Assembly (NCBI GenBank): GCA_030428205.1
Contig: JAUIBK010000016.1
Location: forward strand, 11,454 to 75,453
DNA: 64,000 nt
Reading direction: 5' to 3'
DNA from: a bacterium
GTDB lineage: Bacteria; Bdellovibrionota_C; UBA2361; RFPC01
How positions within the stretch are numbered: position 1 is the stretch's first letter; each line of letters begins with the position of its first letter. This document shows, piece by piece, positions 35,359 to 54,933 of this stretch. The notes beneath the pieces are model-generated. The model was not told the origin of the DNA. It saw nothing but the letters and a program-made list of their open reading frames with translations, and did no database searches. The position numbers and the translations under genes are program-made.

Positions 35359-35367
35359 TTGATCTAC

Positions 35368-38145: not shown

Positions 38146-38181
38146 ATTTTTGTGGGATCTTGCTAGCAGTAATGGGGGAGT

Positions 38182-38343
38182 GAGGCGGAAGCGGATACCA
38201 AGAATAAGACCAAAACGAAGATATAGGTCAAGGCGGAGGCTGAGAAAAAGATAAAGAGCAAGGAGATCCTATTTCTCAGCCTCTATCTCAGTCTTCGTCT
38301 AGATCTTGGTTTTGGTCTTATTCTTGGCCTTGGTCTCCGCCTC
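38182..38343. repeat. Long imperfect palindrome of 6-bp tandem units, copy A. The same family is at 52864-53082.
   Basis: Arm GGCGGA AGCGGA TACCAA GAATAA GACCAA... pairs with TCTTGG TTTTGG TCTTAT TCTTGG CCTTGG TCTCCG, with a perfect 18-bp core. Confidence 0.6.
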
Positions 38344-38365
38344 TAAAAAACAAGCAAAAGTTCTA

Positions 38366-38821
38366 TCAAAAATACACCACCGTAACCCCAGCATTCCCCT
38401 CATCAACCTTAAAATGCTTTACAGCTGATATCTCTCTCAATCTCTTATGAACAGCTTCCTGTACTTTCCCTGTTCCAATCCCGTGTACAACACGAAACGA
38501 ATCGTGACCAGCACGAAGTGCAGCATCAAGTGCGCTGTCGAGAGCTTCAAGTGCTTCGTGTACACGCTTGCCGTGAAAATCGATGGATGTTGGGGCCGAG
38601 TGTAGCGAATGTGCTTGTTTTGCTGGAGAGGTAAAAGCTCCTTTGGGAATCTCTTCTCTCTTAGATTTTTTCTTTTCAATTTTACGTAAATCTTGACACT
38701 TGCAACGCATTGAGAGGTTGCCAATTCGCACTTCAAACGTATTGCGAGCGAGTGATTGAACAATAATCCCGGATTTATTTAGCGGGATAACGAGGACACT
38801 ATCTCCTGGTTGAAGTTGCAT
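38366..38821 (-). CDS. Smr (small MutS-related) domain protein
   Basis: DFHGKRVHEALEALDSAL...VVHGIGTGKVQEAV Smr domain signature. Confidence 0.65.
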   Translation of the reverse strand: MQLQPGDSVLVIPLNKSGIIVQSLARNTFEVRIGNLSMRCKCQDLRKIEKKKSKREEIPKGAFTSPAKQAHSLHSAPTSIDFHGKRVHEALEALDSALDAALRAGHDSFRVVHGIGTGKVQEAVHKRLREISAVKHFKVDEGNAGVTVVYF

Positions 38822-38836
38822 GGAAGAGGCGCGGTG

Positions 38837-40102
38837 TTACGAGAGAAGCTTTACGAGGTGATACTTCTTTTTTCCTGTACGAAGTACGAGTAGCTCTTGA
38901 GGTTCTGGAAGAGCTTCTTTCAGAGAGAGGGCTCCGTCAGTAATACGCTCATTGTTGAGATAAGCACCGCCATTTTTAATTAGTCTCTTGCATTCTCCCT
39001 TTGAAGAGATAGCACCAGAATTGACAAAGAGATCGAGCAAAGAGCTCTCTCGTGTATCGTGTAAAGGAAGCGAAGAGGAGGGGACATCGGAAAAAATCTC
39101 TTCTAGCTGCTCAGTTGAAAGCCCCTCAAGTGACCCACCAAAGAGAACTTGCGCTGAGCGTTTGGCGTCTTCAGTGGCATCTTTGCCGTGAATGAGTGTG
39201 CATACTTCATCCGCGAGTGTTTTTTGAGCGAGCCGTTTTTCAGGCGCTTGTTCTACACATCTTTCAAGCTCTGCAACTTTCTCTTTATCGAGAAAGGTAA
39301 AGATCTTAATGTAACGAATGACATCGCTATCGTCAGTATTGAGCCAGAACTGGTGAAGCTTGTAGGGACTTGTCAATTTCGGGTCGAGCCAAATAGCCCC
39401 ATCTTCTGATTTACCAAACTTTTTCCCTTGGCTGTTGGTGAGAAGAGGAAAGGAGAACGCAAATGCTTCACCAACATTCTTTCGACGGATGAGTTCAAGC
39501 CCAGCAGTGATGTTGCCCCACTGGTCAGAGCCCCCGATCTGCAGCCGGCAACCGTGATGCTTAAAGAGGTGGAGGTAATCAAATGCCTGTAGAGTCATGT
39601 AGCTAAATTCAGTAAATGATATACCAGCCCCTTCGACTCGTGATTTGACGACTTCTTTGGCAAGCATGTAGTTGACGGTAAAGTGCTTTCCAATATCACG
39701 CAGAAACTCGAGCATTGTGACGTCTTTGGTCCAGTCGAAATTGTCTACAAAAGTGGCCGTAATACCAATTCGCTCGTAGATAGCTTCAGTTTGCGCTTTT
39801 TGAGTGTCAACGTTTGCTTGGATCTCTTCGCGCGAAAGAAGTTGGCGCTCTTTATTCTTTCCTGAAGGGTCTCCAATTGAGCCAGTTGCGCCTCCAAAGA
39901 GGATAATAGGCTTATATCCTTCTTGAGCCATGCGAGCTGAAACGAGCAGGGGAATAAGGTTGCCCAGCTGCAAGCTCGTAGCTGTCGGGTCAAAGCCCAC
40001 GTAAAATGGCGCTCCAGCCGGTAATTTGCCTGCTATCTCGTCATCAGAGCGGTCTTGGAGGAGACCGCGCCACTCAAGGTCTTGGAATAATTCAACTGTC
40101 AT
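38837..40102 (-). CDS. tyrS: Tyrosyl-tRNA synthetase
   Basis: Class I motifs, KMSKS-like KFGKSE and a C-terminal S4-like domain. No T-box leader; only 137 bp lie upstream. Confidence 0.9.
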   Translation of the reverse strand: MTVELFQDLEWRGLLQDRSDDEIAGKLPAGAPFYVGFDPTATSLQLGNLIPLLVSARMAQEGYKPIILFGGATGSIGDPSGKNKERQLLSREEIQANVDTQKAQTEAIYERIGITATFVDNFDWTKDVTMLEFLRDIGKHFTVNYMLAKEVVKSRVEGAGISFTEFSYMTLQAFDYLHLFKHHGCRLQIGGSDQWGNITAGLELIRRKNVGEAFAFSFPLLTNSQGKKFGKSEDGAIWLDPKLTSPYKLHQFWLNTDDSDVIRYIKIFTFLDKEKVAELERCVEQAPEKRLAQKTLADEVCTLIHGKDATEDAKRSAQVLFGGSLEGLSTEQLEEIFSDVPSSSLPLHDTRESSLLDLFVNSGAISSKGECKRLIKNGGAYLNNERITDGALSLKEALPEPQELLVLRTGKKKYHLVKLLS

Positions 40103-40239
40103 GGCCGGGAGAATACCTTTTTCTCTTCTTGCGTGTCCACAGCACTTGCCTTTTTTTCTGTGATCTGAGAATGTTAGCCTTCGATTTGATGGTACCCCTC
40201 ATGTTAGAGAGGGAGGAATTTTTTTGAGTTAACCAACTG

Positions 40240-40440
40240 ATGGCAAAAGCAGCGAAAGAAACCACTTTTCTCGTATCATCTGAGGGGACAGGGTATTTCT
40301 ACACGAACCGACGTAATAAGAAGAAGAACCGTGGCGATAGCAAGGTTTCTGTTCGTAAGTACGACCCCATTGCTCGAAAGCATGTGCTTTTCGAGGAGAA
40401 AAAACTCTCAAGGCTAAAGAAAAAGTACGTGCAGGCTTAG
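40240..40440 (+). CDS. rpmG: 50S ribosomal protein L33 with a C-terminal extension
   Basis: MAKAAKETTFLVSSEGTGYFYT...KYDPIARKHVLF resembles L33. Confidence 0.7.
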   Translation: MAKAAKETTFLVSSEGTGYFYTNRRNKKKNRGDSKVSVRKYDPIARKHVLFEEKKLSRLKKKYVQA

Positions 40441-40470
40441 ATTCCTCCGTGCTACGCTAACCGCGTTCGT

Positions 40471-40509
40471 TTTTTGCCCATTAACCTGAGTGTGGTGTGT
40501 GGGCAAAAT
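40471..40509 (+). terminator. Candidate terminator of rpmG
   Basis: A T-tract, then the tttttgccca...tgggcaaaa stem. Confidence 0.45.
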
Positions 40510-40576
40510 TATTGTTGTATTGCTCTTTGCTTCGGTGCAAGGAGAGTGTTTTTCCCGTAGAGAGTAGTGTTGTTCT

Positions 40577-42727
40577 ATGGCTTTGCCCGTCTCTGAGAGT
40601 AAGCCCAAATCACCTCAAGAACTCACCGCTGCCGGTGGTCCTGGAATACAGCAACAAGACCCTCCTCTCGATATACCAGTGCAACAAGGGGCTGGAGAAC
40701 CAGCAGTTCTGTCCATCCCCGAGGAGAGTATTTCTCGTCTCTCTCGTATTGAAAAGATTCGACCACTCACGGAGAACTCGCGCATCCTTTTCGGTGCTTT
40801 TGCGGCAATAAACGTTCTGCTCTATCACCTTATTCTTCGGTCTCAAGGCTCAGAGGTGATGAGCAACGAGCTTTTGCTTGGGCTTTTCTGTGTTGTCTCT
40901 AGTGTGCTTGGTGCGCTCACCCTTGTTTTTTCACTCTCAGAGCTCTTCCGCTCAGGTTTTTCAGCGCTCCTGCGTGGTAAGCCTTCAATTGATACCTCGC
41001 TGATGGTGGCGCTTGTCGTTGGTATGGCTGCCATTGTGTATAGCCTCATTTTTGATTTTCAAACACTAAGCCGCTCGGGGTTTGCTGACCTTTATGTACT
41101 TGCTGCCTTTCTTCTTACGGTATGGAGATTTTTAGCAAGCGGATACAGTGAGGCGTTAGGTGATTCGCTCGGTTTTGATCTGCGAAAATACGTCTCAACA
41201 GTGCGTCTCTCCTCTTCTCAAGCTGAAGGTGAGGAGGCCAAAAAAGAGGTTCCTTATCAATCTCTCAAAGAGGGGGCTCAGTTCGAGCTACAAGCCGGTG
41301 ACATGGTGCCCACAGACGCAACGATACTCAAAGGCACGGCTCAGCTAAACGAGAGAAAATTTGGCGGTAAGGCGAGCTCGCACGTTCGCACCGAAGGACA
41401 GACCATTTTTGCTGGCTCTCGAATTGTCGTTGGAAAGCTTGTGTGTGAGGCGCTCTTGCGACCAGAAGATGCGACTATTACAAACTTTAGTTCAAAGCTT
41501 AAAGAGGTTCTTGTTCGTTCGAGGCAGCAAGCCAAAGAGCTCTGGAAGTATGCTCCAGTGCTTAATGCGCTCCTTGTTTTTACGGCAGCATGCTCTGGCG
41601 TGTATTGGTATCAAGAAGGCTTAACTCTGCTCCATACTGTCGAACTGATTATGGCTGTGCTCTTTCTTGCGCCGCTATTGCAGTTTGTTCTTATCGTTCC
41701 ACGTCTGACAGGTCTACTCCTTACGGATCTCTTTATGAAAGGGGCGCTTGTGCACTCTCCTGAAACGTTGCACAAGCTACGGAAACTTGAGCGGCTCACC
41801 CTCTATGTGCATGAGGATGATACGATAGGTGAACCACAGGCAACTTCGTTTGAGATACTCGATTCTCGAGTTGATGAAGAGGGGCTCCGTGCCGTGTTGC
41901 TTGCTATTCTTGGTGCTGTCGACGGCGATAGAGAGCGGTCTCTTGTGCAGTTTCTCTCTAAAGATTCAAAGGTAACACCTCTTCTCGATGTCGATGACCT
42001 CACGGTGTATCCGGGATACGGCTTGTGTGCAACGGTGCGCGGAGTTGAGTTTAGTGTTGGTCGCGAAGGCTTTTTGATTGACCGTGGTGTGCAAATGACC
42101 GCTTCTGAGATAGGCCAAGACACTGAAACTGAAGAGTGGCTCTATATTGCACTTGGCGATGCTCTGGTAGCTCGCAGTAAGTTTATGAGAGCGTTCTATC
42201 AAGACGGAAGAGAGCTCCACGAGAGACTCCGTGCGCTTGGTATTCGGTGTTCGCTTGTCAGTGATTCAATAGATCAGAAGACGCTCGATCATGTAGGTAA
42301 GATTACAGGACTTGACCTGAGCCAGATTCATGGTGGAGCCTCTCTTGAAGAGCTTACTCGCCTCTGTGAGCGCGGGGAGGGACCACTTGCTACGTATGGA
42401 ACTTCTACCGTTCCAAAGGAGCTTCAAGCTCACGGACTCTCTTTTCGACTCTTTGACACCGTTTTGTGGGACCTTAAAGCGGGAGATGTGCTTCTCTTTG
42501 ATAGAAACCTATCGGTTCTCCCAAAGATCGTTTCGGCTGTAAGAAGATTCTATAGACTGAGAAATGTTGGAGTCGCTGTGTTGGCCGCACTCTCAGTGGT
42601 TTTACTCTTGAGTGCCTGTCTTGCTGCTGTGCCGCCACTTGCGCTGCTGCTGAGCTCTATGTTTGCTGCGAGTGCTTTTGGGCTTCTCTCGTTTCTCTTC
42701 CTCCCTGAGCTGCCTAAAGCCTCCTGA
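40577..42727 (+). CDS. P-type-ATPase-like membrane protein with degenerate catalytic motifs
   Basis: P-type architecture with N- and C-terminal transmembrane helices. HEDDTIGEP replaces DKTGT, FGGKAS replaces TGES and SDSI replaces TGDN. Confidence 0.45.
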   Translation: MALPVSESKPKSPQELTAAGGPGIQQQDPPLDIPVQQGAGEPAVLSIPEESISRLSRIEKIRPLTENSRILFGAFAAINVLLYHLILRSQGSEVMSNELLLGLFCVVSSVLGALTLVFSLSELFRSGFSALLRGKPSIDTSLMVALVVGMAAIVYSLIFDFQTLSRSGFADLYVLAAFLLTVWRFLASGYSEALGDSLGFDLRKYVSTVRLSSSQAEGEEAKKEVPYQSLKEGAQFELQAGDMVPTDATILKGTAQLNERKFGGKASSHVRTEGQTIFAGSRIVVGKLVCEALLRPEDATITNFSSKLKEVLVRSRQQAKELWKYAPVLNALLVFTAACSGVYWYQEGLTLLHTVELIMAVLFLAPLLQFVLIVPRLTGLLLTDLFMKGALVHSPETLHKLRKLERLTLYVHEDDTIGEPQATSFEILDSRVDEEGLRAVLLAILGAVDGDRERSLVQFLSKDSKVTPLLDVDDLTVYPGYGLCATVRGVEFSVGREGFLIDRGVQMTASEIGQDTETEEWLYIALGDALVARSKFMRAFYQDGRELHERLRALGIRCSLVSDSIDQKTLDHVGKITGLDLSQIHGGASLEELTRLCERGEGPLATYGTSTVPKELQAHGLSFRLFDTVLWDLKAGDVLLFDRNLSVLPKIVSAVRRFYRLRNVGVAVLAALSVVLLLSACLAAVPPLALLLSSMFAASAFGLLSFLFLPELPKAS

Positions 42728-42840
42728 AATTGTAAATACTTATACATGCAGTGCGTAGATTCCCGTATTCGTCAAAAAAATGACATCGATTGGCCTTTGT
42801 CTCCATCGTAATGGCAGAAGTGGCTACCCAATGGGAGGAG

Positions 42841-43209
42841 ATGATGTCTGAAGCACAATCAAACACTTGGTCAGGCTCAAATGGGAGAACACAAGTCTTT
42901 CTCGTAGATAATATTGCTGAAGAACTTGAGGGATATGCGAGGGGGCCTGAAAGAGCGCTCCTCACGGCGCTCCTCTTTGATGGTATTCAAGCCTATATGA
43001 ATTACGCTATGAGTGATGACTCACGCCCTACGCAAGATAAGTATCGAGAGGCCTACCTGTGGGTGCATACCACTGGCTCAGAGTACGTTTTTAGTTTTGA
43101 AAACGTTTGTGAAGCGCTTGGCATGAACCCCGACTATCTACGATTAGGTTTAGCGAACGCCACAAACTCTCAAACCTTTGAGTGGCGCAGATCGCGTAGA
43201 AATTTCTAG
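42841..43209 (+). CDS. Small hypothetical protein, paralogous to 49077-49364
   Basis: It shares the motif RxLLxAxL...EAxLW...SFxxxCEALxxxPxxLR with 49077-49364. GGGAGGAG RBS before the ATG at 42841. Confidence 0.45.
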   Translation: MMSEAQSNTWSGSNGRTQVFLVDNIAEELEGYARGPERALLTALLFDGIQAYMNYAMSDDSRPTQDKYREAYLWVHTTGSEYVFSFENVCEALGMNPDYLRLGLANATNSQTFEWRRSRRNF

Positions 43210-43390
43210 AGCAAATCTCTGTAAGCGTTTCTTTGAAGTAACTTGAAAGGTTCTAAGTGCAGTAGAGTGTTTGAAGACAAGCATTTCTCCAAAGCTTCGC
43301 AGGCAGCAGAGAATTATTGCTGTGAGGGATAAAGCTACTGCTCGAAAGAGAAACGATTTTATGTGTCAACACTGAGTGGTGAGGACCTCG

Positions 43391-45322
43391 TTATCCTGTT
43401 TCCTTCATACTTCTCTGATTTATTTGAGCTTGCAGCTCTCTTGCTTGGGCGATGAGGGAATCAACGCCAGTGGAAGGAGATTGAGTCCCTTCTCCATAAG
43501 GTCCTCTGTGTTCTGTTGGAAGAAGGGAAGCTACTCGATCACCTAACAGATGAGCCACTACTTGAGGGGAAGAGTTGTTCGCATGTTTGGTAAGCGACTC
43601 GGCTGGGAGTGGTTCGCCAAAGACAACTTGTATTGGACGAGAGGAACTGATCTTCGTAGTTTTTCCGTTTGAGAAGTTGGCGCCACCTACTTGGCACCAG
43701 GGCACGATAACGAGATCGCTCGGAAGTCCGCCACTATTAGAGAAAGCTGTAAGTGTCTCCATAAAGTGTGTTCCAAACGAGTTCATTGCCGTTGGTGAGC
43801 ATTCATTTTCAGGGAAGAGAGCGAGAGCATCAGCTGGGGACCGTAAAGCGTCAAGCCCTATTCTCATTGCCTCTTCGTATGGTGGAAGAGCTGGACTTGC
43901 AGGAAGATTTGTCGAGCGAGGTATGATAATCCTATTTGCGGCTGCTCCTAGAATGCTTTTAGCAAACTGACTGGAATAGTGCTCGTCTTTCTCGGTATGG
44001 GTAAGACCGTCAGCTATTCTCCGTAGACCTGAGGAACGTAAAGCGTGGGAGAGAAGAGTTGCATCACCCCAGCCACTGTGGTTTCCAATGAAAAGAAGTT
44101 TTTTGCCGTCACGATAGAGATCCGTGAGGGCATCCGCTCCAGTAACCTGAAAGTTTTCGTGTGTGAAGATGGACTGTGTCAGAGCTGTTGTGAGAAATTG
44201 GAGGGACCGACTTGCCGGAGAAAGTTCAATCGAAGCAGTTTCTTGAGGTTGTCCTTCAAATTCTCTGTCGAGTGCGGATTTGTATTCTTCAACATAATTG
44301 TTGAGTTCTATAAGTTCACTGTGATCGAGTCTGCTGAGTGCGCTGTGTAAAGCAAACGCGACAGCATCTCCCGCAAAACCGTGTCCGGGAAGAGTCGCCG
44401 AAAGATCTTGAGAGAGTTCGTGTCTGAGACTATCTGCCGATAGAGAAACTCCTTTGCCCCACTTTAAGGTGGGTTGAGTGCTTGGAGATGAGGCTTTGTG
44501 ATCTGTACGGCCAGCGTAGAGTTCTTGTTCTTGGGCGTATTGAGTTACAACGTCAATCCCCTTGGCCCGGCCTGCTCGGATATCGGTAGCATGAATGTTA
44601 TGTAGTCCTGGATAGACGAGAACCGTCTCCTTGAATCCTGGAATTTTGTTGTACATCCTCCGAAAGCCGAAGAATCGATCTGCATGAGGATTCTCTTGGA
44701 TTTCGGGAGTGTGAGTCCAGAGTGTATTTTGTGAGATTGCCTTTTCAAAGTTGTCTGGGCCAAGGAGTACATAATTATTTTTCCCCCAGAGTGAGCGTAG
44801 ACGTAAGTCGTCAAAAGTTCGTTTATCCGTGGGTATAAAAACTCCGGGTTCTTCGAGGGAGTCATCAGGGGAATCGAAAACGGTGATACCTACATTTTCA
44901 AGTGCTCTGCGAGCCATTTCATGTCTGTGCTCAAAGCTTGAAGATTGAGGTTTGTATGGATTTTGAAAAACAACACCGAGATTAACTCGAGAAAAGCCTA
45001 GTTTGAGTGTTTCTTGAATGATTTCTAAGTGGTGAGGTCCAATCGGATCAAATGTCCCTTCGAACCAAACAGAGCACTCGTGCGCATGTGAAGGAGCGCG
45101 AAAAGGATGTTGTTGCAAATGAAGCAGTGCTCGTGGGGGAATATTTGAGGTATCAACGAGTTCTATTGAGTTGTTTTCCCTTGAGGCATCTAGATTTGCT
45201 GCAGGGTGCTCCAGTGCAGCGAGTGGAGAGACGGGAAGAGCTGGCCTTTCTGGTGTGGATTCTGCTGGCTGTTGATTCCCAGGCTGTTCTGATAGATCAG
45301 GTTGCTTCGGATCAGTTTGCAT
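43391..45322 (-). CDS. Fusion protein: NadD-like nucleotidyltransferase domain plus PlsC-type acyltransferase domain
   Basis: GTFDPIGPHHL (HxGH) and IHATDIR (ISSTxIR-like) at the N-terminus. FIGNHSGWGD (NHx4D) acyltransferase motif at the C-terminus. Confidence 0.5.
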   Translation of the reverse strand: MQTDPKQPDLSEQPGNQQPAESTPERPALPVSPLAALEHPAANLDASRENNSIELVDTSNIPPRALLHLQQHPFRAPSHAHECSVWFEGTFDPIGPHHLEIIQETLKLGFSRVNLGVVFQNPYKPQSSSFEHRHEMARRALENVGITVFDSPDDSLEEPGVFIPTDKRTFDDLRLRSLWGKNNYVLLGPDNFEKAISQNTLWTHTPEIQENPHADRFFGFRRMYNKIPGFKETVLVYPGLHNIHATDIRAGRAKGIDVVTQYAQEQELYAGRTDHKASSPSTQPTLKWGKGVSLSADSLRHELSQDLSATLPGHGFAGDAVAFALHSALSRLDHSELIELNNYVEEYKSALDREFEGQPQETASIELSPASRSLQFLTTALTQSIFTHENFQVTGADALTDLYRDGKKLLFIGNHSGWGDATLLSHALRSSGLRRIADGLTHTEKDEHYSSQFAKSILGAAANRIIIPRSTNLPASPALPPYEEAMRIGLDALRSPADALALFPENECSPTAMNSFGTHFMETLTAFSNSGGLPSDLVIVPWCQVGGANFSNGKTTKISSSRPIQVVFGEPLPAESLTKHANNSSPQVVAHLLGDRVASLLPTEHRGPYGEGTQSPSTGVDSLIAQARELQAQINQRSMKETG

Positions 45323-45564
45323 AAATACTACGAAACTCCAAGTTCATAGACTCATAGATAAAAAGAATGATTCGCGATGGGCAGATGGTGAATAAAAGAA
45401 CAACAAATAGACTGGGAGAAGTGGATAGCGAAGGGGAGAGACGAACACACGCCTCACCCGTACTCACATGAACACTAACCCTAGTGGCGCGAAATATAAC
45501 CTAGCGCTTTTCAAATTGCACGGGGACAACGAAAGAAAACGCCACGAGAATTGTTTATTCTTTG

Positions 45565-46398
45565 TTAGTGGTTTGAGGCCAGTTGAAGAGGAGTTCTCTC
45601 ATGGGTGTAAGTTACTGGGTATACTCCCTCAATCCTTGTCGTAATGCGCGATTGGTCGATAGTAACCGTGGCAAAAGCTTCGGCCGCAACACCATTGTCT
45701 TTTGCGTCTTCAATAAATGATTGAATTGTAAAATAGGGAATATTATTGACTACATGGAAGTCATTGGAGTGCATGTGGCCATTAAATACAGCGGCAACTT
45801 TACCTGAGCCTTCGAGGAGTGTTCTCAGGGTTTCACTATGATGGATAAAAGCATACTCCGGGATTCCCTTGAACCAAAAGGTGTCTTCAAGGGGCCTCTC
45901 AACAAGTGGATGGTGAATAAAGACAAGTACAGGCTTTTGAGACTTCTTGAGCTCATCTGATAACCAGGTGAGCTCCTCCTCGGGAATATGTGCATTTTTG
46001 AGTTCTGGTGTGCGGCTATAGAGCACCAAGTTCGTAAATTCTTGAGATTCAAAAGAGTAGTAGAGCTTCTCGTAGCCAAAACCTTCTTGAAGCTCATGCT
46101 CAGAGAGCACGGCTGTGTCGTGGTTCCCAACTACGTGATAGACCGGGCATGGGTGCTGCCCGAAGATCTCCATTGAATCTGCAAGCTTCTTTGACTCTTC
46201 AGAGTGGGAGGGAGCATCTGGGTTTTCTTGAAAAAGATCACCAAGTTGGACGACAAACTCAGTGGGCTTGGATTCTAGTCGGCTCAGTGCTTCTTTGATT
46301 GAGGTTAAAGTCCCGTGTGTTACAGGCTCTTTTGTGACAGGGTGCTTGCGTGGTACGCCTACATGAAAGTCAGAGATGAGGCCAAAAACAGTAGTCAT
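45565..46398 (-). CDS. Calcineurin-like metallophosphoesterase
   Basis: GDLFQEN, YHVVGNHD and GHMH motifs. Confidence 0.7.
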   Translation of the reverse strand: MTTVFGLISDFHVGVPRKHPVTKEPVTHGTLTSIKEALSRLESKPTEFVVQLGDLFQENPDAPSHSEESKKLADSMEIFGQHPCPVYHVVGNHDTAVLSEHELQEGFGYEKLYYSFESQEFTNLVLYSRTPELKNAHIPEEELTWLSDELKKSQKPVLVFIHHPLVERPLEDTFWFKGIPEYAFIHHSETLRTLLEGSGKVAAVFNGHMHSNDFHVVNNIPYFTIQSFIEDAKDNGVAAEAFATVTIDQSRITTRIEGVYPVTYTHERTPLQLASNH

Positions 46399-46682
46399 AA
46401 CACGGTCTCCTTGTTTGGTCGGCGAGATTGTGCCTTATCTCTATTCTTGTTTCAACTGCCACCAACCTGAGTTTCTTCTCCAAGCACCATGAGCTCCGGT
46501 TGAGTTGTTGAGGGTGAGCAGGCCTGTTCGATATTTTACAGTTGCGTCAAGGAATCCCTGAGGAAGTATTGCTCTTCCAGAGGGGTTTGGTATATTTAAA
46601 ACCTCGTTTTGATGTCAGGGGCTATCTATAGTCAGTTTAACTCTCATCCTTTTATGAGTATGAGAAGAGGTGGGTCGTAATT

Positions 46683-48299
46683 ATGCTACATTCGCAAGGT
46701 GAAGGGACCTCAGGAGGTTCATCTAGGAATAACTCAGAACATGCCGTAACTGACCCCTCTGTGTCGCAACAGCTACGTCCTGATGACCAGAGATTGGCAA
46801 TTCTTGCACACCAAGGAGTCCAGGGGGAGCTTCCGCCAAATTCTCTTGCCGCCCTTGAGCAGGCATTTCATACCGCAGACGTTGTTGAATGTGACATCTA
46901 TACAGCCCCAGACTCCAGTGAAATCGTTGTGATTCACCCTGAGAGCTTCTTTCTCTTTGTTGATAAGAATGGGATGCAAAATGAAAAGCCCATTCCGATA
47001 GGCCTTGATGAATTGCGAGCTGTCAATGTTCGTGGCCACCAACTTGTACCGACCTTGAATGAAGTGCTGGATGTCTACACGTCAATCCCAGGAAGAAAGG
47101 CAGAGTTGCATATCGAACTGAAAGGCCCTGGAACAGCTGAGGCTGTTGTGCCCTTGCTCCGTCAACGAGTGGAGTCTGGGGAACTTGCATATGAAGACTT
47201 CCTCCTGACGGGCTTATGTTACAAAGGAGACGAAAAGTCTCGGATTGAAGTTGCTCGTGAACTTGACCCAGAAGCTCGCTTAGTTCTTGTGGTTCGTGGA
47301 GGAGATCTCGAATCAGAAGGATTTGATGGATGGCAAGGAGTTATCGAGAAGGGCAAAGAGCTCCAGGTAGAAGTGATTACGGCAGCAAGAAAATTCCTTA
47401 CTCCAGAGATCGTAGCTCAACTGAGAGATGCTGGTTTTGAAGTTGGATGTTATCACAGCCGTACCTCTGATGAGCTTGAAGCGGCCCTTGCTCTAGAAAC
47501 AGATGTTGTTGCAGCGGACTTCTTTTGTGGTGCGAGTGTGGAAGATTATCCACACGTGCGGAAAAATGGGTCTCCTCTTTTTGCTCCTCTACAAGAAGCA
47601 GGCTATTACCACATGCGTGATCTTATCTGGGAGCTTGGTTGGAAGCTTGAATCACAGCGAGATTCTTGGCCAAATGTTGATCAAGGGCCCGGAAAAGTGC
47701 AGGCAGATGCAGGGGTGCTCCACCGTGAGGACCAACTCATAGCGAAGCTGCTTCATGAAGGAGTCGAGTCTCCGGTCCACTGTGATCTCTCTCGAGTTCT
47801 CATTCCTGAAGAGTTTCTTGGTGACATTGATCGAACAGTATTCTCTACAACAGTGACGTTCTCAGAACTTCTTTCCCCTGGTGGGCAATTACGCCTTAGA
47901 GATAGCTTGCTCGATGATTTTCTTGATCGTGATGTCCCAGGTGTATCTGAAGCTACGGTTGATTTTCTAACAGGTCTTTCCGTGCGTGATTTTTTACGCA
48001 TTGGTGACGGAGTGCCTCAAGAACTCTTACGAGAAGTTTCGCAACCGCTCGATGAAACAGAGCTCTCGTTTTGTGAAACTTTTTCTCGCGATTTTGCCGT
48101 TCGTACGGGACGATTGCTTGGGATGCTTGGATTTACAGCATTAAACCCAAGGCATGGGGCGAAAGATTCTTATACGGTAGCTATCTCGTCACCTCTCTTA
48201 GATGAATCCTCTTGGGCGAGGCAGGGAGCACATGAGCAAGTACAGGCTCAGCTCCTTCGAAGTGGCAAGATGGGGGAAGTGGAGTTTCTTTCTTCCTAG
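46683..48299 (+). CDS. Glycerophosphodiester phosphodiesterase-like N-terminal domain plus a C-terminal domain of unknown function
   Basis: AHQG...PNSLAALEQAF...ECDIYTAPDSSEIVVIHPE resembles the GDPD catalytic region. Confidence 0.45.
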   Translation: MLHSQGEGTSGGSSRNNSEHAVTDPSVSQQLRPDDQRLAILAHQGVQGELPPNSLAALEQAFHTADVVECDIYTAPDSSEIVVIHPESFFLFVDKNGMQNEKPIPIGLDELRAVNVRGHQLVPTLNEVLDVYTSIPGRKAELHIELKGPGTAEAVVPLLRQRVESGELAYEDFLLTGLCYKGDEKSRIEVARELDPEARLVLVVRGGDLESEGFDGWQGVIEKGKELQVEVITAARKFLTPEIVAQLRDAGFEVGCYHSRTSDELEAALALETDVVAADFFCGASVEDYPHVRKNGSPLFAPLQEAGYYHMRDLIWELGWKLESQRDSWPNVDQGPGKVQADAGVLHREDQLIAKLLHEGVESPVHCDLSRVLIPEEFLGDIDRTVFSTTVTFSELLSPGGQLRLRDSLLDDFLDRDVPGVSEATVDFLTGLSVRDFLRIGDGVPQELLREVSQPLDETELSFCETFSRDFAVRTGRLLGMLGFTALNPRHGAKDSYTVAISSPLLDESSWARQGAHEQVQAQLLRSGKMGEVEFLSS

Positions 48300-48373
48300 T
48301 ATTCCGACAGAAAAGTTTTTTCACCTAACGGGGAGGGCCAATACAGTTGGCTAGTGCTCCGTCGGAAGAGATA

Positions 48374-48589
48374 TTACTGCTCTGCTGTTTTTTGTGCGTT
48401 TTCAAGGGCCTCTTGAATTTCACCTTCATCATCTGTTGGGAGAATCTCGCGTGAAATAACGTAGGAGCCGTTTGCCCAACTTCCCAGATCTTTAAGTCTG
48501 CACCGATCGCAGCAGAATGGGAAGGATGGAGACTCGCGCAAGGCAGGTTGTTTACACTCAGGGCAAGGGGGGAGGGACTTGGACGTCAC
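48374..48589 (-). CDS. yacG: Zinc-ribbon DNA gyrase inhibitor YacG-like protein
   Basis: CPECKQP...FCCDRCRLKDLGSW four-Cys ribbon. Confidence 0.6.
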   Translation of the reverse strand: MTSKSLPPCPECKQPALRESPSFPFCCDRCRLKDLGSWANGSYVISREILPTDDEGEIQEALENAQKTAEQ

Positions 48590-48868
48590 TTATTTCTCTT
48601 CGTACTTTCGGATACGTACTTTCTCAACACCAACGGCATCATGTGCGAGAAACTGAAGTTGTTGGAAGGTAGCATCGCGTTTAAGATATTCCTCGTCTTC
48701 ATCACTGCCCGGCTCAATGAAGAGCTCTTCGTGCTCGAAGTGGTAGGAGTTTGCTCGACGGAGGTGCTCGAGGAGAGCGAGTTGAAGCTTTTCGTCTAGG
48801 CTTTGAAGGAGCTTTTCCCAGAGTTCAGGTTGGTTTCCTTTTGCTGTTCCGCCCGCATCAGAAGACAT
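48590..48868 (-). CDS. Hypothetical small acidic protein
   Basis: The ORF abuts yacG. No recognisable domain. Confidence 0.35.
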   Translation of the reverse strand: MSSDAGGTAKGNQPELWEKLLQSLDEKLQLALLEHLRRANSYHFEHEELFIEPGSDEDEEYLKRDATFQQLQFLAHDAVGVEKVRIRKYEEK

Positions 48869-49076
48869 AATGCAACTCTTCTCCTTCTAAAAAATTCCTC
48901 TACCTCTATTATAGATCACAGCCTGTGATCCGTAAAAGGGATGAACTCAATATGTTTTCCCTTTCTTTCATTCTTAAGATGCACAAAACCCCTTTGTCGA
49001 TACATTCTGTTAGACAAAGGGGCTTTTATCAGAAATAAGCAGTCATTCGAGAGAATGCTTATTCTTATGAGAGCGA

Positions 49077-49364
49077 CTACATTGCGGCTTCTTGGCGTTG
49101 TGGAGTGGCGTCTCTGTTGGCTTGAAGTTTAAGGGCGTTGCGAAGGCTTGGCATGTCAAGATCGAGTGCTTCGCAGATAAAGCGGAAAGAGAGTGGGGCA
49201 TCCGTTGGTTCATCGTCCATGAGCCATAACTCAGCACCGTCACGGAGATCCCCGTCTCCTGTGAGGTAGTCAGTGATAGCGCGTTGGAGCACAGCTGCTA
49301 GGAGACGGCGCTCTGGAACTTGTGTGTTGCCAACAGGAACTTCTGCGTTTGACCAAAATTTCAT
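49077..49364 (-). CDS. Small hypothetical protein, paralogous to 42841-43209
   Basis: RRLLAAVLQRAITDYL...AELWL...SFRFICEALDLDMPSLRNAL shares the motif of 42841-43209. Confidence 0.4.
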   Translation of the reverse strand: MKFWSNAEVPVGNTQVPERRLLAAVLQRAITDYLTGDGDLRDGAELWLMDDEPTDAPLSFRFICEALDLDMPSLRNALKLQANRDATPQRQEAAM

Positions 49365-50052
49365 GATGATTACCCTTCAATAATGCTCAGAATAAAAATC
49401 TGTTAATTCAACAGAGAGTTTCATTTCTTCCTACCTTTTAGGGCGAGCAGCCCCGTGCAAGTTATAAGTGAGAAGCCGAAAAAGTCCCTCACCATCGTGA
49501 TTTACCCAACCACATGGCTTGCAAAAGATAGGTGATGTAAAAGAAACAACAGTTTAAGTATTTGTAACTCGTGCTCGAGTCAATCTGCGTGCTTTAGGAT
49601 GAAAATCACCGGCTTTTACTTTCAAGCCCAAACTAAAGGGTCTCGTGAAAAGCAAGCACACACAACAAACTACTGTGGAGATCAAATCATATGAGACCCA
49701 AGCAGTGAGCTGATGAAAAAAACCGAAAGGTGAACCCGAAAAGAGGTAAGTGTTTTCTTTTTACAGGCGGAGTTGTCTCGCCCCCAAAAAAAGAAAGCCC
49801 CAAAAAAAAAGAAAGCATGTCAGAAGTGACAAGCTTTCCCCAAAGACAAGCGAATACTACCGAACGGATATTCGGGAGTCAACGAAAAAATAACATTGCA
49901 CAAATAAAAAGTGCATTCAAAGAAAGTACTAATCAAACCCTCTATGAGGGGCTCACTAGCACCATCAATTGAAAAATAGAACAAAGGGTCAGTTCTTGCA
50001 AGAGGAAGACTCGATAAATATGCGATAGAATGAATCGATGAGCTTGTTAAGG

Positions 50053-51114
50053 CTATGTATTAGGGGAGATCCAACCTGAAAAGAGTAGGTCCGTCAGTGG
50101 CTGGGGGGCATGGTAAGTATATAGAATTATTAGTTTTGATAAGACTTGCTGTACTTCATGACGGATGTTGAGAGACGAAGTTCGTAGTTCAGTAATCTTC
50201 AACTGTGCGTTGGTCTGTTCGGCCAGTGCACTTTTGTATGAACTAGCTATATCAAGACTTGAAGTACGGATCCTACTGAGAGTTTTTTGAAAATCTTGAG
50301 GGCTACGTGCTCGGACTTTTCCCCCAGTTTGTTCGAGAAGCTTTTTGAGCGAGTTGAGGGTAAGAATATTGTCTCGAAGTGCTGGAATTTGTGGAAGATC
50401 CTTTAAAACCCCCCCTCCATAGACCTTGATAGATGAAGCTGGAGCGAGATCCCGAAAACTAGGATATCCCATAAATTCACGGAAATCCTCGGCAACGAGC
50501 TGAAATCTCTTCACTGAGCTACTTAGTGTTCCTTCTAATTGGCGTAATCTCTGTTCTTTTCCATCAATCTCTTCCTCTATATCAGTGTGTTGATGGGCAA
50601 GAGCGCGAGCATACTCGAGTCGAGCCGAGAGGTTTTCTCCTGAGCTCTTGAGCTCGAGTAGTGCTGGAGAATTTGGCAGCATCTCTTCATCAAAAGTATT
50701 TTGACCCATGATAGTCAAAACCTCTGAGAGTCTCCTCCTCTGAAGCAGAGGAAGGGCTTTGGCGTAGTGTTTAGCCGCTGAAAAGAGAAGCTTTTCTAGC
50801 TGTCTTGGGTGGGAGAAGCCCGGAAATGCAATGGTACTCAGTCGAGAGGTCGAGCGATCGATAAGCTCAAAGTATTCAGAAACTTGTGCTATATTTCCTT
50901 TTTCGAGGCTCTCTCGTAGTTTTTGAGAGGCTAAGACATGGTGCAGGTCTGACGTGAGGAGGTAGATGTACACAGAGACAAGGCCAACACCCAGAACAGA
51001 GAGTGCAGCAAGTACCCACACTTTCGCGGAGACTCGGATCTTAAGGTTGGGGTTGAGTAATAGTATGCCTTCGTCCATGTCACTATATCTACCAGAAGTC
51101 TGTGGAGATGGCAC
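50053..51114 (-). CDS. Single-pass membrane protein with a long coiled-coil
   Basis: Transmembrane helix VWVLAALSVLGVGLVSVYIYLL followed by heptad-like charged repeats. Confidence 0.45.
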   Translation of the reverse strand: MPSPQTSGRYSDMDEGILLLNPNLKIRVSAKVWVLAALSVLGVGLVSVYIYLLTSDLHHVLASQKLRESLEKGNIAQVSEYFELIDRSTSRLSTIAFPGFSHPRQLEKLLFSAAKHYAKALPLLQRRRLSEVLTIMGQNTFDEEMLPNSPALLELKSSGENLSARLEYARALAHQHTDIEEEIDGKEQRLRQLEGTLSSSVKRFQLVAEDFREFMGYPSFRDLAPASSIKVYGGGVLKDLPQIPALRDNILTLNSLKKLLEQTGGKVRARSPQDFQKTLSRIRTSSLDIASSYKSALAEQTNAQLKITELRTSSLNIRHEVQQVLSKLIILYTYHAPQPLTDLLFSGWISPNT

Positions 51115-51212
51115 TTAGTCTTCGTGGCATATTCCCCGAGATCGACAATGCGGAGCTCTTGCAGCATCGAGGGATGGAAGTATCCAAGGCCACCAATGGG
51201 GATATACCCCGT

Positions 51213-51411
51213 AACCTCAGGTTTGTCGTGCTCTCGGAGTATGGTGCAGCGTATCGTGGTGTGAAAGCTTGTCGCTTTCACGCGTATTTCCCCACGGGGT
51301 ATATTTGTCCTCCCCAGGCCCATAAATGGGCCGTGCGGCCTCCCCGAGGAGGCCTCGAAAATGCTTCGCATTTTATACTCAAGCAGCTTTGTCTGCGACA
51401 AACCTGGGTTT
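51213..51411 (+). repeat. Structured repeat element, copy 2, the same family as 13268-13488
   Basis: caggtttgtcg...cgacaaacctg perfect 11-bp terminal inverted repeat. Internal helices are conserved with compensatory changes. Confidence 0.6.
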
Positions 51412-51493
51412 GAGCATATACTTGATCAAATTTTTGATGTTTTGATGCTTGCTTGCTATCCTAGCCTCTTCATTTGCGTAACCGAGAGGTATT

Positions 51494-52831
51494 ATGAGTG
51501 AAAGAGCTGTGCTTGACGGCAATGAGAAACCCTCACCTTTATGCTCGAGTGAGCTTGGGGGCTGTGCGATGAGCCAAGAGCATCGATCTCTCGGAAAGCA
51601 AGTCCGCTCTGATTTCCCGTTCTTTGGTGGGGATAGAGACCAAGAGTCATCAAGAATAGCGTTTCTTGATTCGGCGGCGAGTGCTCTTAAGCCACAAGTT
51701 GTAGTGGATCGCATGTCTCATTACTTGCTCCATGAGCATGCAAATATCCATCGAGGTGCATACAAGCTTAGTGCTGATGCTACGGCAGCATACGATCTCG
51801 CTAAACTCCAAGTTGCTCAATTTCTCTCAGCCCCATCGGCTTCTTCTATTATTTTCACACGAGGGACTACAGAGGGAATCAACCTGCTGGCTCATAGCTT
51901 TGGAGAGAGGCTTGAGAAGGGTGATAGAGTCTTGCTCACTACGCTAGAGCATCACAGCAATATTGTGCCTTGGCAGCTTCTTGAAATGAGAAGGGGAGTA
52001 GGCGTGTCGTACGCTGATATTCGAGATGACGCCGCTCTTGATCTCGCGGATCTCTTTGCAAAGCTTCGCCAAGAGAAACCAAAATTACTTTCGATTACCG
52101 CCGTTTCAAATGCGTTTGGGACTATTATTCCACTAGAGAAGATTATTCCAGTTGCACGAGAGGTCGGTGCGCTTGTTCATGTAGATGCTGCTCAAGGAAT
52201 TGTGCACTTTCCGCTTGATGTTCAAAGTCTCGATATTGATTTTCTCACCTTCTCAGGTCACAAGATCTACGGCCCAACGGGAATTGGTGTCTTGTATGGA
52301 AAGCCGGAGCTTCTGGAAGCGATGCCTCCATACCAAGGCGGAGGTGACATGATCCATGAGGTCACGCTAGACGGTTCAACCTGGGCTGAATCACCTCGTA
52401 AATTCGAAGCAGGTACGCCTGCTATTGCTGAAGCTATTGGACTCGGTGAGGCCTTAGCCTATGTCACCGCACTTGGACGACAAGAGCTTCTTGACTATGA
52501 GTCACAATTGTTTGAAGAAGCTTTTGAACTTCTGTCGCGTGAGCCTGGGGTTACTCTTTATGGCCCTGCCACGAGCATTCAAAACGAGAGAAGCAAAGTA
52601 CAGACGTCAATCTTACCTTTTACCGTAGAAGGTGTGCATCCACATGATATTTCAACTATAGCGGACAGTTTCGGTGTTCAGATTCGTGCTGGCCACCACT
52701 GTGCTATGCCGGCGTTACGGAGACTAGGAATCCAGTCGACGGGAAGAGCGAGTATTGGTGCGTATACTATCTTAGAAGACTTCGAACTTCTGTGTGAAGC
52801 TATTCGGCGGGCGAGGAAGACTTTTCAGTAG
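51494..52831 (+). CDS. sufS: Cysteine desulfurase, SufS/CsdA-type class V aminotransferase
   Basis: RSDFPFF, FLDSAAS..KP, SGHKIYGPTGIGVLYG (PLP lysine) and a C-terminal catalytic Cys region. The true start may be the internal Met at 51569. Confidence 0.8.
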   Translation: MSERAVLDGNEKPSPLCSSELGGCAMSQEHRSLGKQVRSDFPFFGGDRDQESSRIAFLDSAASALKPQVVVDRMSHYLLHEHANIHRGAYKLSADATAAYDLAKLQVAQFLSAPSASSIIFTRGTTEGINLLAHSFGERLEKGDRVLLTTLEHHSNIVPWQLLEMRRGVGVSYADIRDDAALDLADLFAKLRQEKPKLLSITAVSNAFGTIIPLEKIIPVAREVGALVHVDAAQGIVHFPLDVQSLDIDFLTFSGHKIYGPTGIGVLYGKPELLEAMPPYQGGGDMIHEVTLDGSTWAESPRKFEAGTPAIAEAIGLGEALAYVTALGRQELLDYESQLFEEAFELLSREPGVTLYGPATSIQNERSKVQTSILPFTVEGVHPHDISTIADSFGVQIRAGHHCAMPALRRLGIQSTGRASIGAYTILEDFELLCEAIRRARKTFQ

Positions 52832-52863
52832 ATCGTGAGCTCCCTAAAGTTTTTCACTGTCTA

Positions 52864-53082
52864 GGTCTTAGCCTTAGTCTTAGTCTTAGTCTATAATCTT
52901 GGTCTTGGCCTGATTCTTAGCGTTGGCCTCCGCCTATAAAAACTCCCACTTTCACCTCAGCATGCACGCGTACGGGAACGTCTACGTTAACGTTTCATTT
53001 TAAATGCGAGGATCAGGCTGATGCCAAGAATAGGACCAAGACCAAGATGTAGACTAAGGCTAAGACTAAGGCTAAGGCTGAG
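52864..53082. repeat. Long palindrome of 6-bp tandem units, copy B. The arms are separated by an 88-bp spacer.
   Basis: Left arm CTTAGC CTTAGT CTTAGT...TCTTGG TCTTGG. The right arm is its reverse complement (CCAAGA...CTAAGG CTAAGG). The spacer contains acgttaacgt, gcatgc and acgcgt palindromes. Confidence 0.6.
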
Positions 53083-53254
53083 GGGGGTAGGGGGTTATCT
53101 TTTGGGCGGGGGAGGGAACCTAAAGCTCCCAAGATACCCCGGTAAAAAATACCGGGATATCTTAGTTGCATCAGGAACAGGACAGGCAACCGTGCATCGC
53201 ACCTATGCATGGCACCAAACGTTCTGCAATTATTGGGGGTGAAAGGACTGTTGT

Positions 53255-53902
53255 TTATACCACCTGATCAACAACAATACTTCCGGATTGAGCAAGCACC
53301 TCTTGTGAAACTTGTTCCGATACTTCGGTTTCAACCTTGAGAGGTTCAAGGCCGAGATCGGCTCGTTTTTGTGATTCGTATGCTATGAGTTTTTCTTCGA
53401 TCAGAGATTTGGTTTCTTCAATCCCTGCTTGAACTCCTTCGATCTCAAAAGCTCCGATGCCTTCGAGGATATCAAATGCTTCGCCGTATCCTGTTCCTAT
53501 TCCACTACGGATGGTGGACATAAACGAATCTAGCAGCTCTTCGCCTTCAAGCTCGGGGTTCTGTTTTGCATACACATCAAAGAAGGCTGTAGCACCTTGC
53601 ACGATACGCTCAGCCGTTGCTTCGGGAGTATGTTGTTCAGGTTGTAGCGACTCAACTCCGTCTGGAACTTCCGATGCGAGAATTTCGTTTAGCTTTTGAA
53701 TGACTTGATCTGTTGTAATCGTCAGTGAAGTTGGAAGATCAAGCGGGGAAAAGGACACCTTAGCTGCTGGTTCTCGCTCAAACTTAAGAGCTGAGTCGAG
53801 CACGTATTTGTCAGCCTGGAGTTTTCCAGTTTCACTTGATACGTTGGTGAGGGATTTAGGAACGGTTGTTCCACTTTGGATGAGAGATTGGCTACCTTCC
53901 AT
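53255..53902 (-). CDS. Hypothetical acidic protein
   Basis: ORF with a Glu-rich C-terminal half. No recognisable domain. Confidence 0.4.
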   Translation of the reverse strand: MEGSQSLIQSGTTVPKSLTNVSSETGKLQADKYVLDSALKFEREPAAKVSFSPLDLPTSLTITTDQVIQKLNEILASEVPDGVESLQPEQHTPEATAERIVQGATAFFDVYAKQNPELEGEELLDSFMSTIRSGIGTGYGEAFDILEGIGAFEIEGVQAGIEETKSLIEEKLIAYESQKRADLGLEPLKVETEVSEQVSQEVLAQSGSIVVDQVV

Positions 53903-54098
53903 GATGTACTCCTTACAGTGCCTTCCTTGTCACGTAATAGAGGTATCGACAAGGCTTGTGAGATCTTGAGTAAAAAATCGTTTTATTCTTGATTTTTCTA
54001 TGCTTTACAGTATGTTATGTGGGTAGGATTCTATCCATCGACGAGAACAAGTTGATACGTCAAAATGGCCTTAGAGTGACAAAGGAGAGGATCTCACC

Positions 54099-54905: not shown

Positions 54906-54933
54906 TTTTGGGGCTCCGTTGTTCTTGTTGAGC

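Follow-up and report, generated by a model that had tools for sequence, protein, structure and literature searches.

The nucleotidyltransferase superfamily PF01467 includes a glycerol-3-phosphate (G3P) cytidylyltransferase (GCT), TagD, whose family is defined by the signatures RTxGISTT and RYVDEV, and NadD is defined by the SYTxDT motif of its substrate region. Enzymes of the GDPD family contact their substrates through the Arg of an HR(G) motif and the Glu of PENT, acyltransferases bind the acceptor phosphate through block III (FPEG-x-R), and the CDP-alcohol routes have a known pathway logic that leads to glycerophosphodiesters. In the glycerol-3-phosphate acyltransferase (GPAT) family the His of the HX4D motif is the catalytic base, and the fold binds G3P and acyl-acyl carrier protein (acyl-ACP) (PMC4792965). 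Small-phosphoacid cytidylyltransferases that supply lipid head groups continue to be discovered; one is Caulobacter CpgD, a phosphoglycerate cytidylyltransferase that provides a head-group donor (PMC12275187). Here we describe a locus that draws on several of these families, found in a 64-kb stretch of bacterial DNA (64,000 nucleotides, positions 11,454 to 75,453 of contig JAUIBK010000016.1; hereafter the window). Its central gene encodes a 643-amino-acid (aa) protein that fuses a nucleotidyltransferase (NT) domain of the NadD/NMNAT class to a plastid-GPAT-like fold, and it belongs to a three-gene module with two phosphodiesterases. All building blocks come from known superfamilies, but we found no description of the NT–GPAT-like architecture, of a hexokinase lobe joined to a GDPD barrel, or of the fixed three-gene module. 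Together they point to an undescribed pathway of G3P salvage or activation in uncultured, deltaproteobacteria-like bacteria.

A NadD-class nucleotidyltransferase fused to a GPAT-like fold

An earlier note on this DNA had singled out the 643-aa open reading frame (ORF) as a fusion of a nucleotidyltransferase and an acyltransferase, flanked by two phosphoesterase genes. All three ORFs lie where it placed them, and the peptides it quoted from the fusion protein are found at aa 89-99 (GTFDPIGPHHL), aa 243-249 (IHATDIR) and aa 411-420 (FIGNHSGWGD). The parts of the fusion gene are as follows.

43391..45322, minus strand: whole fusion gene, 643 aa plus stop codon (ORF, full-length homologues, AlphaFold2 model)
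45155..45322, minus strand: disordered N-terminal tail, aa 1-56, rich in P, Q and E (pLDDT below 50; mean pairwise identity 18%)
44513..45154, minus strand: NadD/NMNAT-class NT domain, aa 57-270 (PF01467, NadD relatives, motifs; mean identity 43%)
44447..44512, minus strand: disordered interdomain linker, aa 271-292 (pLDDT below 50; mean identity 12%)
43394..44446, minus strand: plastid-GPAT-like domain, aa 293-643 (Foldseek, profile and motif census; mean identity 20-26%)

The fusion is genuine. A word-indexed search of 5.8 billion proteins returned five homologues, one of them 66% identical but partial, from a metagenome-assembled genome (MAG) labelled 'Bdellovibrionales bacterium', and four full-length (34-37% identity). 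Among 1.84 billion cluster representatives, an exhaustive HMMER search recovered about 15 proteins of 540-682 aa with the same two-domain architecture, the full-length ones at 33-37% identity; these stood among 244 matches at E<=1e-3 that were mostly single-domain acyltransferases or NadD-like proteins. With about 15 independent full-length homologues from different samples sharing one architecture, and a reading frame that runs unbroken across the linker, the idea of two genes joined by a sequencing frameshift fails, and we give it practically no weight. The AlphaFold2 model (mean pLDDT 72.5) agrees with this anatomy: between the disordered tail and the disordered linker lies an alpha/beta NT domain, and the C-terminal half opens with a helical bundle. 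No signal-peptide features were seen in the tail by inspection of the sequence, with no predictor run. Across 12 full-length members, mean pairwise identity is 43% in the NT domain, 26% in the GPAT core and 20% in the helical bundle.

The N-terminal domain matches the cytidylyltransferase-like model PF01467 over aa 86-249, at 27.4 bits against a cutoff of 21, and its closest relative is NadD in NCBIfam, PDB-sequence and Foldseek comparisons alike. The best NCBIfam model is NadD TIGR00482, at 27.2 bits well under the equivalog cutoff of 112.45, and further NadD models, with cutoffs of 187-315, give 19-22 bits. Foldseek against the PDB places the domain with bacterial NadD and NMNATs (E about 3e-3, TM 0.55). 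Outside the family, the nearest relatives are NadD-like proteins of about 180 aa, followed by annotated NadDs; a word-indexed search with a broad NT profile likewise returned NadD-like proteins, not stand-alone family members. No TagD model was among the NCBIfam matches (the generic TIGR00125 domain scores 18.1 bits vs 27.7), and both RTxGISTT and RYVDEV are absent from the window fusion sequence.

In the window protein the NT motifs read GTFDPIGPHH, QNPYK, GPDNF(x9)W and IHATDIR, preceded by a family-specific lead-in, HLxxHPFxAP, and in the fusion family they are near-invariant as G(S/T)FDP-(G/S)xHH, QNPYK, GPDNF...W and H(A/S)TxxR. The first had been labelled HxGH, but the actual motif is G-P-H-H, of which only the last His is universal across the family. 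An alignment of 14 divergent sequences, with stand-alone and differently fused proteins included, keeps invariant the Gly and Pro of GxFxP, the last His, the Lys of NPxK, an Arg, GxD, a Trp and the Arg of SxTxxR. These residues match the NadD/NMNAT active-site pattern, and strong conservation marks the NT domain as the catalytic unit of the fusion. Stand-alone relatives carry H, T or N at the first position of the (H/T)xxH motif, which has drifted to G or S in the fusion clade. Where NadD has SYTxDT, the aligned segment reads GVF(I/V)xx, and about 40 inserted aa precede the last motif.

Those nearest outside relatives, the NadD-like proteins of about 180 aa, are encoded in two of the fetched loci (L011 6001-6537; L012 3697-4242) in a conserved arrangement of NT, HDOD protein and PAS histidine kinase genes that differs from the classical nadD context.

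The C-terminal half carries an acyltransferase fold that Pfam alone would miss, since PF01553 scores below threshold on the window protein (12.9 bits vs 23, aa 393-435). Foldseek aligns it with plastidial GPAT 1iuq (E 2e-8, TM 0.53 over 342 columns, full 357-aa target) and also with 1k30 and 8ia1 (E 2e-8 to 2e-7, about 340-370 columns against targets of 357-363 aa) and human GPAT1. A profile built from the C-terminal domain and its stand-alone relatives finds Thermotoga PlsC 5kym (E 5e-8) and GPAT1 8e4y (E 2e-5), and four of the five stand-alone relatives scanned with Pfam pass PF01553 (P0018, P0022, P0024 and P0028). The fold match and the family-profile matches thus confirm the acyltransferase fold despite the low Pfam score. 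The domain comprises a helical bundle (aa ~293-360) followed by a PlsC-fold core, and the window protein has an intact HX4D dyad in block I (NHSGWGD; H415, D420), a remnant FPEN in block III (FPENEC), VIVPW in block IV and then a family motif, LLPxExRGxYG.

This catalytic equipment is poorly kept elsewhere in the family. The HX4D His survives in five of 15 family representatives, the window protein included; the other ten have E, Q, F, Y, A or S at this position. Block III reads FPE(N/G/Q/D) in the fusion clade, with no G-x-R, and (F/Y)PEG(L/T)R in the stand-alone relatives P0022, P0024 and P0028. His-less orthologues P0006 (locus L001) and P0009 (locus L006) nonetheless sit in the same three-gene module, so canonical acyl transfer cannot be the unifying function of the family. 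Moreover, a divergent group of loci hereafter called split-type (L005, L013, L014) encodes the NT without a GPAT-like domain, and no gene for such a domain lies within 8 kb, which makes the domain an accessory of one clade. The GPAT-like domain thus appears to be a clade-specific accessory and, judged from its motifs, probably a pseudoenzyme in most relatives, whereas acyltransferase activity of the window protein itself is possible.

Two phosphodiesterases complete a conserved three-gene module

Next to the fusion gene lie two genes whose products are assigned to phosphodiesterase families.

45565..46398, minus strand: GpdQ-like binuclear metallophosphodiesterase, 277 aa (PF00149, metal-ligand motifs)
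46399..46682, no strand: divergent intergenic spacer of 284 bp between the metallophosphodiesterase and GDPD-like genes (from the coordinates)
46683..48299, plus strand: GDPD-like protein, 538 aa (PF03009)
46794..47552, plus strand: GDPD TIM-barrel domain, aa 38-290 of the 538-aa protein
47580..48299, plus strand: C-terminal extension, aa 300-538, a single hexokinase/ASKHA-like lobe

The metallophosphoesterase was earlier said to follow the fusion gene. That holds in plus-strand coordinates only: in the direction of transcription it lies upstream on the same minus strand, with a gap of 242 bp, and the GDPD-like gene diverges from it across the 284-bp spacer. The 277-aa protein scores 58 bits with PF00149 (threshold 21.5), and all of its binuclear-site motifs (DxH, GD, GNHD, H, GHxH) are present and invariant in the family alignment. 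The closest solved relative of its profile is GpdQ (2dxl/2dxn, E 6e-18, alignment spanning aa 4-221 of the 274-aa chain), well ahead of the cyclic-nucleotide phosphodiesterase Rv0805 (E 2e-8); we confirmed that 2DXN is GpdQ, the Enterobacter aerogenes glycerophosphodiesterase. NCBIfam models for SpdA and CpdA match it weakly.

The 538-aa protein scores above threshold with PF03009 (32.4 bits). It has a TIM-barrel fold with both catalytic His and an E/D/E metal site (motifs E-x-D and E-L-K), and the barrel superposes on G3P complexes. Complete catalytic sets are kept in both diesterases. Two substrate-contact motifs differ, HRG having become HQG and PENT having become PPNS, and both changes are invariant in 20 family members. 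The C-terminal lobe has conserved motifs of its own, GRxxG...PRHG and QVxAQxLRSGK.

We scored four profiles (NT, GPAT-like, GDPD-like and metallophosphoesterase) across all fetched loci. Genes for NT, GDPD-like protein and metallophosphoesterase are adjacent in the window and in L001, L002, L003, L004/L005, L006, L008, L010 and L014. On the contig of protein P0164 the module appears to be present, by gene sizes and order alone, two of the three genes having no recorded Pfam match. The module recurs in at least nine independent loci, in at least five gene orders or orientations and at 33-46% protein identity, while the flanking genes differ completely between loci; conservation of the neighbourhood, as the earlier note suggested checking, is borne out with the order shuffled. 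Most loci have short gaps of 32-51 bp between the module's genes, and in L005 the GDPD-like gene overlaps the NT gene by 4 bp. The fusion gene is always accompanied by both phosphodiesterase genes in the loci compared, and comparison across loci marks the NT and the two phosphodiesterases as the conserved core of the module.

The NT also takes part in gene fusions. P0017 is a single 823-aa polypeptide in which the GDPD-like protein, C-terminal extension included, is followed by the NT domain. Other Rosetta-stone fusions join NT to HAD-IIA (P0031) and to the lipid-kinase domains DAGK_cat/YegS_C (P0061). In each of the split-type loci (L005/L010, L013, L014; NT identities 34-39%) the neighbours include G3P dehydrogenases: a GlpD-like one that depends on FAD and one or two long, GpsA-like ones that depend on NAD(P). 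On the P0023 contig, a stand-alone NT lies beside two GDPDs, a HAD-IIA phosphatase, a CDP-alcohol phosphotransferase and an FGGY (GlpK-like) kinase. Across the approximately 12 loci inspected, no NAD-pathway gene adjoins the NT gene and the classical nadD neighbourhood was not seen.

Several further features of these loci deserve mention in their own right. A typical GpsA has about 330 aa; the GpsA-like proteins by the split-type modules have 479-564 aa with long extensions (L005 4296-5735 and 11439-13133; L013 5709-7391), and the 564-aa one scores well under the NCBIfam cutoffs. After the split-type module of L005 (13557-17231) come a Ppk1 polyphosphate kinase and a Ppx/GppA exopolyphosphatase with an HD domain, which may be coincidence. 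A gene for cpYpsA, a circularly permuted, nucleotide-binding SLOG protein, adjoins the module on the P0164 contig and lies a few kb from module genes in L007 (2721-3191), a possible link to nucleotide signalling.

A glycerophosphate-centred model

Each partner family makes, consumes or binds G3P or its esters. On the strength of GpdQ, GDPD and the GPAT fold, the GlpD, GpsA and GlpK neighbours, the HAD-IIA and lipid-kinase fusions and the CDP-alcohol phosphotransferase, we propose a G3P-centred mechanism. That the module is centred on glycerophosphate we conclude with high confidence, and the evidence points to sn-glycerol-3-phosphate as the common metabolite; for the substrate of the NT domain and the order of steps, we infer the following.

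Glycerophosphodiesters would be cut by the two diesterases to free G3P or a closely similar alcohol phosphate, which the NT domain would then join with a nucleoside triphosphate (NTP) to give a nucleoside diphosphate-glycerol (NDP-glycerol), an activated head-group donor, in a TagD-like reaction. TagD, a member of the same superfamily, and CpgD offer precedents for such a step. Coupling of the GDPD-like protein to the NT, by gene fusion in one case and a 4-bp overlap in another, may reflect consecutive steps or a complex. The GPAT-derived domain would serve as an accessory binder of G3P, an acyl chain or a lipid and would often be catalytically dead, although in the window protein, with its H/D dyad intact, it may still acylate G3P. 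The whole would form a self-contained, cytoplasmic module of three enzymes; by inspection, with no predictor run, none of the three proteins has membrane segments. As a complete account, with diesterases releasing G3P, the NT activating it and the GPAT-derived domain as accessory, this is our leading reading but a tentative one, with a chance that we place just short of even. For the NDP-glycerol step specifically, which is proposed from context, our confidence is modest.

Several observations weigh against this account. All sequence and fold comparisons put the NT domain closer to NadD/NMNAT than to TagD-type enzymes; it has the FDP...H, PxK, GxD...W and SxTxxR motifs and lacks RTxGISTT. The three-gene module contains no obvious transferase to use NDP-glycerol, and the neighbouring genes for G3P dehydrogenases, GlpK and the CDP-alcohol transferase belong to the split-type subclade and are not seen around fusion genes of the window's type. 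Given the family-wide change of HRG to HQG and PENT to PPNS, the substrate of the GDPD-like protein may not be a classical glycerophosphodiester. Finally, Gly at the first (H/T)xxH position in the fusion clade could mean reduced or altered NT catalysis.

A bolder version gives the hexokinase lobe a part. A GDPD with a nucleotide-binding lobe, coupled to a NadD-derived transferase, might turn glycerophosphodiesters directly into nucleotide-activated glycerophosphate, or make or break a nucleotide–glycerol conjugate such as ADP-glycerol, with the GPAT-derived pseudoenzyme as a sensor of G3P or acyl groups. We regard this as possible but on balance unlikely; if true, it would mean a new enzyme specificity arising from NadD and new uses of the GPAT and hexokinase folds.

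The G3P-centred model retains part of what the earlier note proposed, a lipid or head-group modification pathway rather than NAD biosynthesis: the glycerophosphate and head-group theme, the conserved linked neighbourhood and an NT score far below the NadD cutoff all speak for it. What does not survive is nucleotidyl activation plus acyl transfer as a conserved logic, given an HX4D His in only five of 15 representatives, no G-x-R and split-type modules that lack the GPAT-like domain.

Alternative explanations

The alternative that survives best is centred on NAD. Here the NT domain would be a true adenylyltransferase of nicotinate or nicotinamide mononucleotide (NaMN/NMN), either a diverged NadD paralogue or the sole NadD of the organism, tethered to G3P enzymes; it would supply or sense NAD(H) for G3P dehydrogenases, or make or destroy an NAD-derived signal, and the diesterases would cut nucleotide diesters. 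The top rank of NadD in NCBIfam, PDB-sequence and Foldseek comparisons fits this well, as do the invariant PxK, GxD(x11)W and SxTxxR motifs of NadD/NMNAT type and the NadD-like proteins and annotated NadDs that are the nearest outside relatives. Context lends something too: NAD-dependent GpsA genes as neighbours, a cpYpsA (SLOG) gene beside or near the module in two loci, the relation of enzymes of the GpdQ class to cyclic-nucleotide phosphodiesterases, and a hexokinase-like lobe that could bind an adenine nucleotide. However, the domain scores far under every NadD equivalog cutoff (27 vs 112 bits for the best), its SYTxDT region is swapped for GVF(V/I), and no other NAD-pathway gene is adjacent in any locus inspected. 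Fusions to GDPD, HAD-IIA, a lipid kinase and the GPAT fold are hard to reconcile with NAD synthesis, and Rfam scans gave no NAD riboswitch. NAD biosynthesis as the module's function is unlikely, and we assign this explanation as a whole a low probability.

Nearest to the earlier note is an explanation at the level of lipids, in which the GPAT-like domain acylates G3P to lysophosphatidate and the NT activates (lyso)phosphatidate to an NDP-(acyl)glycerol. The NT would then be a soluble analogue of CDP-diacylglycerol synthase, the diesterases would recycle deacylated head groups, and the whole would amount to an alternative phosphatidylglycerol-type route. Retention of NH(x4)D in the window protein and of NHx4D and FPEGxR in stand-alone relatives of its C-terminal domain, four of five of which pass PF01553, is what this predicts; the P0061 fusion of NT to DAGK_cat puts lipid-phosphate synthesis next to the NT, and on the P0023 contig a PgsA-sized CDP-alcohol phosphotransferase and a HAD phosphatase adjoin it. 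Yet the module persists where the catalytic His is gone (ten of 15 representatives), the fusion clade lacks the G-x-R of block III, split-type modules have no GPAT-like gene within 8 kb, and the three proteins show no membrane segments on inspection. We also know of no PF01467 enzyme that uses a lipid phosphate. This explanation seems to us improbable, somewhat more so than the one centred on NAD.

Both domains of the fusion might instead be mainly binding or regulatory, acting for instance as a sensor of nucleotides and G3P that regulates the two diesterases, leaving phosphodiester hydrolysis as the sole chemistry and the module as plain glycerophosphodiester catabolism. Degeneracy of the first (H/T)xxH position (Gly) in the fusion clade and of HX4D, beside two diesterases with complete catalytic sets, is consistent with a scaffold or pseudoenzyme. 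But the last His, Lys, GxD, Trp and SxTxxR Arg are invariant in 14 divergent sequences, and no part of the protein is better conserved than the NT domain, a pattern that active enzymes typically show; we hold such a role to be improbable.

Least probable of the functional alternatives, and in our view only a slim chance, is a link to CoA or ACP, with the NT as a phosphopantetheine adenylyltransferase (PPAT)-like enzyme, the GPAT-like domain docking (acyl-)ACP or CoA, as GPAT folds bind acyl-ACP (PMC4792965), and a diesterase freeing 4'-phosphopantetheine: PPATs rank second after NadD in NCBIfam and PDB-sequence comparisons and are the only significant PDB sequence matches of a six-sequence full-length profile (E 5e-3), but those matches span the first 60 residues only, the NT has the NadD-type GxD...W segment that PPAT lacks, and CoA or ACP genes occur in no neighbourhood inspected, where all context points to G3P.

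Genomic setting and distribution

In the window the module is flanked by housekeeping genes, for tyrosyl-tRNA synthetase (TyrRS), an Smr protein, an alanine symporter, a SufS-like protein and aconitase. No second nadD-like gene was found within the 64 kb. The 284-bp spacer at 46399..46682 holds one weak promoter-like site only, and a promoter and terminator scan was uninformative, giving fewer sites than shuffled sequence. Rfam at E<=1 matched nothing in the window region except one chance lncRNA match, with the spacer free of matches, and at gathering score it revealed no riboswitch or other RNA in nine related loci that might disclose a ligand.

We also considered and rejected two other identities for the locus. 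A role in anti-phage defence finds no PADLOC match for six proteins, no match for the family in the phage and plasmid sequences searched, and housekeeping flanks. A mobile cassette is contradicted by a search for bounding repeats that gave short chance repeats only and by two small flanking ORFs with no counterparts in other loci. These two ORFs, 42790..43209 (plus strand, 139 aa) and 49077..49364 (minus strand, 95 aa), bracket the module in inverted orientation and are at best weakly paralogous (BLASTP E 4e-4, 27% identity), with the common residues ...PER.LL.A.L...Y... SF..CEAL.....LR; neither has a Pfam or PADLOC match or a counterpart in the other fetched loci.

Directly beside the module, a 716-aa P-type-ATPase-like protein is encoded at 40577..42727 on the plus strand. 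It scores 47.7 bits with PF00122 and 66 bits with the heavy-metal ATPase model TIGR01525 (cutoff 346). Inspection by eye shows LYVHEDDTIGEP in place of the phosphorylation motif DKTGT, FGGKA in place of TGES and no GDGxND; it looks like a degenerate or pseudo P-type ATPase. Over the whole window (1..64000) cumulative GC skew climbs monotonically from 0.03 to 2.23, which suggests that a single replichore holds the window, with neither origin nor terminus inside.

The fusion family is very rare, with about 15 clusters among the 1.84 billion representative proteins. The first of two genome-collection scans gave no match; among 185,579 species-representative genomes, one contig carries the family, from a 'Deltaproteobacteria bacterium' MAG, and a metagenome scan added two further loci only. 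Known carriers belong to uncultured lineages labelled Deltaproteobacteria or Bdellovibrionales. This extreme rarity and confinement to uncultured lineages limit practical reach. If our model is right, the locus nevertheless represents a NadD-class enzyme recruited to glycerophosphate chemistry in a fixed partnership with two different glycerophosphodiesterases, and a route of head-group salvage or activation that is not described in the literature we searched. It also offers a natural series in which a GPAT fold decays to a pseudoenzyme while still fused and conserved, and, unusually, a GDPD barrel that carries a single hexokinase lobe.

Comparison with known systems

Compared with NadD/NMNAT (TIGR00482, PRK00071), the NT domain shares the Rossmann-like HxGH-superfamily fold and the GxFxP...H, PxK, GxD...W and SxTxxR motifs. 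It differs in scoring about a quarter of the equivalog cutoff, in the Gly at the first motif position and the replaced SYTxDT segment, and in its HLxxHPFxAP lead-in, insertion of about 40 aa, fusion to a GPAT fold and lack of NAD-pathway context. With TagD/GCT it shares superfamily PF01467, and the proposed reaction of G3P and NTP to NDP-glycerol would be that of TagD; unlike TagD, it lacks RTxGISTT and RYVDEV, is twice the size and has no NCBIfam TagD match.

The C-terminal domain resembles plastidial soluble GPAT (squash CmGPAT, 1iuq/1k30) and PlsC 5kym along its whole length, as a helical bundle plus alpha/beta core, with NHx4D present in block I and FPE of block III and block IV recognisable in the window protein. 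Unlike them, it falls below the Pfam threshold, lacks G-x-R, sits behind an NT domain and ends in its own LLPxExRGxYG motif, and its family has lost the catalytic His in ten of 15 representatives. The metallophosphodiesterase has all the binuclear-site motifs of GpdQ (2dxl/2dxn/3d03), of the class III phosphodiesterase branch of Metallophos, its closest solved relative. The GDPD-like protein departs from the GDPD family (UgpQ/GlpQ; PF03009) in HQG, in PPNS and in an appended 240-aa hexokinase-like lobe, which to our knowledge is not found in characterised GDPDs, and it is fused to the NT domain in P0017.

At the level of pathways, the P0023 contig, with its NT, CDP-alcohol phosphotransferase, HAD phosphatase and GlpK-like kinase, recalls the CDP-alcohol routes to diglycerol phosphate, glycerophosphoinositol and the phosphatidylglycerol head group; the window module differs in having no CDP-alcohol transferase. 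The closest parallel in logic, and in logic only, is CpgD, likewise a nucleotidyltransferase with an unexpected small phospho-substrate that feeds a head-group donor (PMC12275187).

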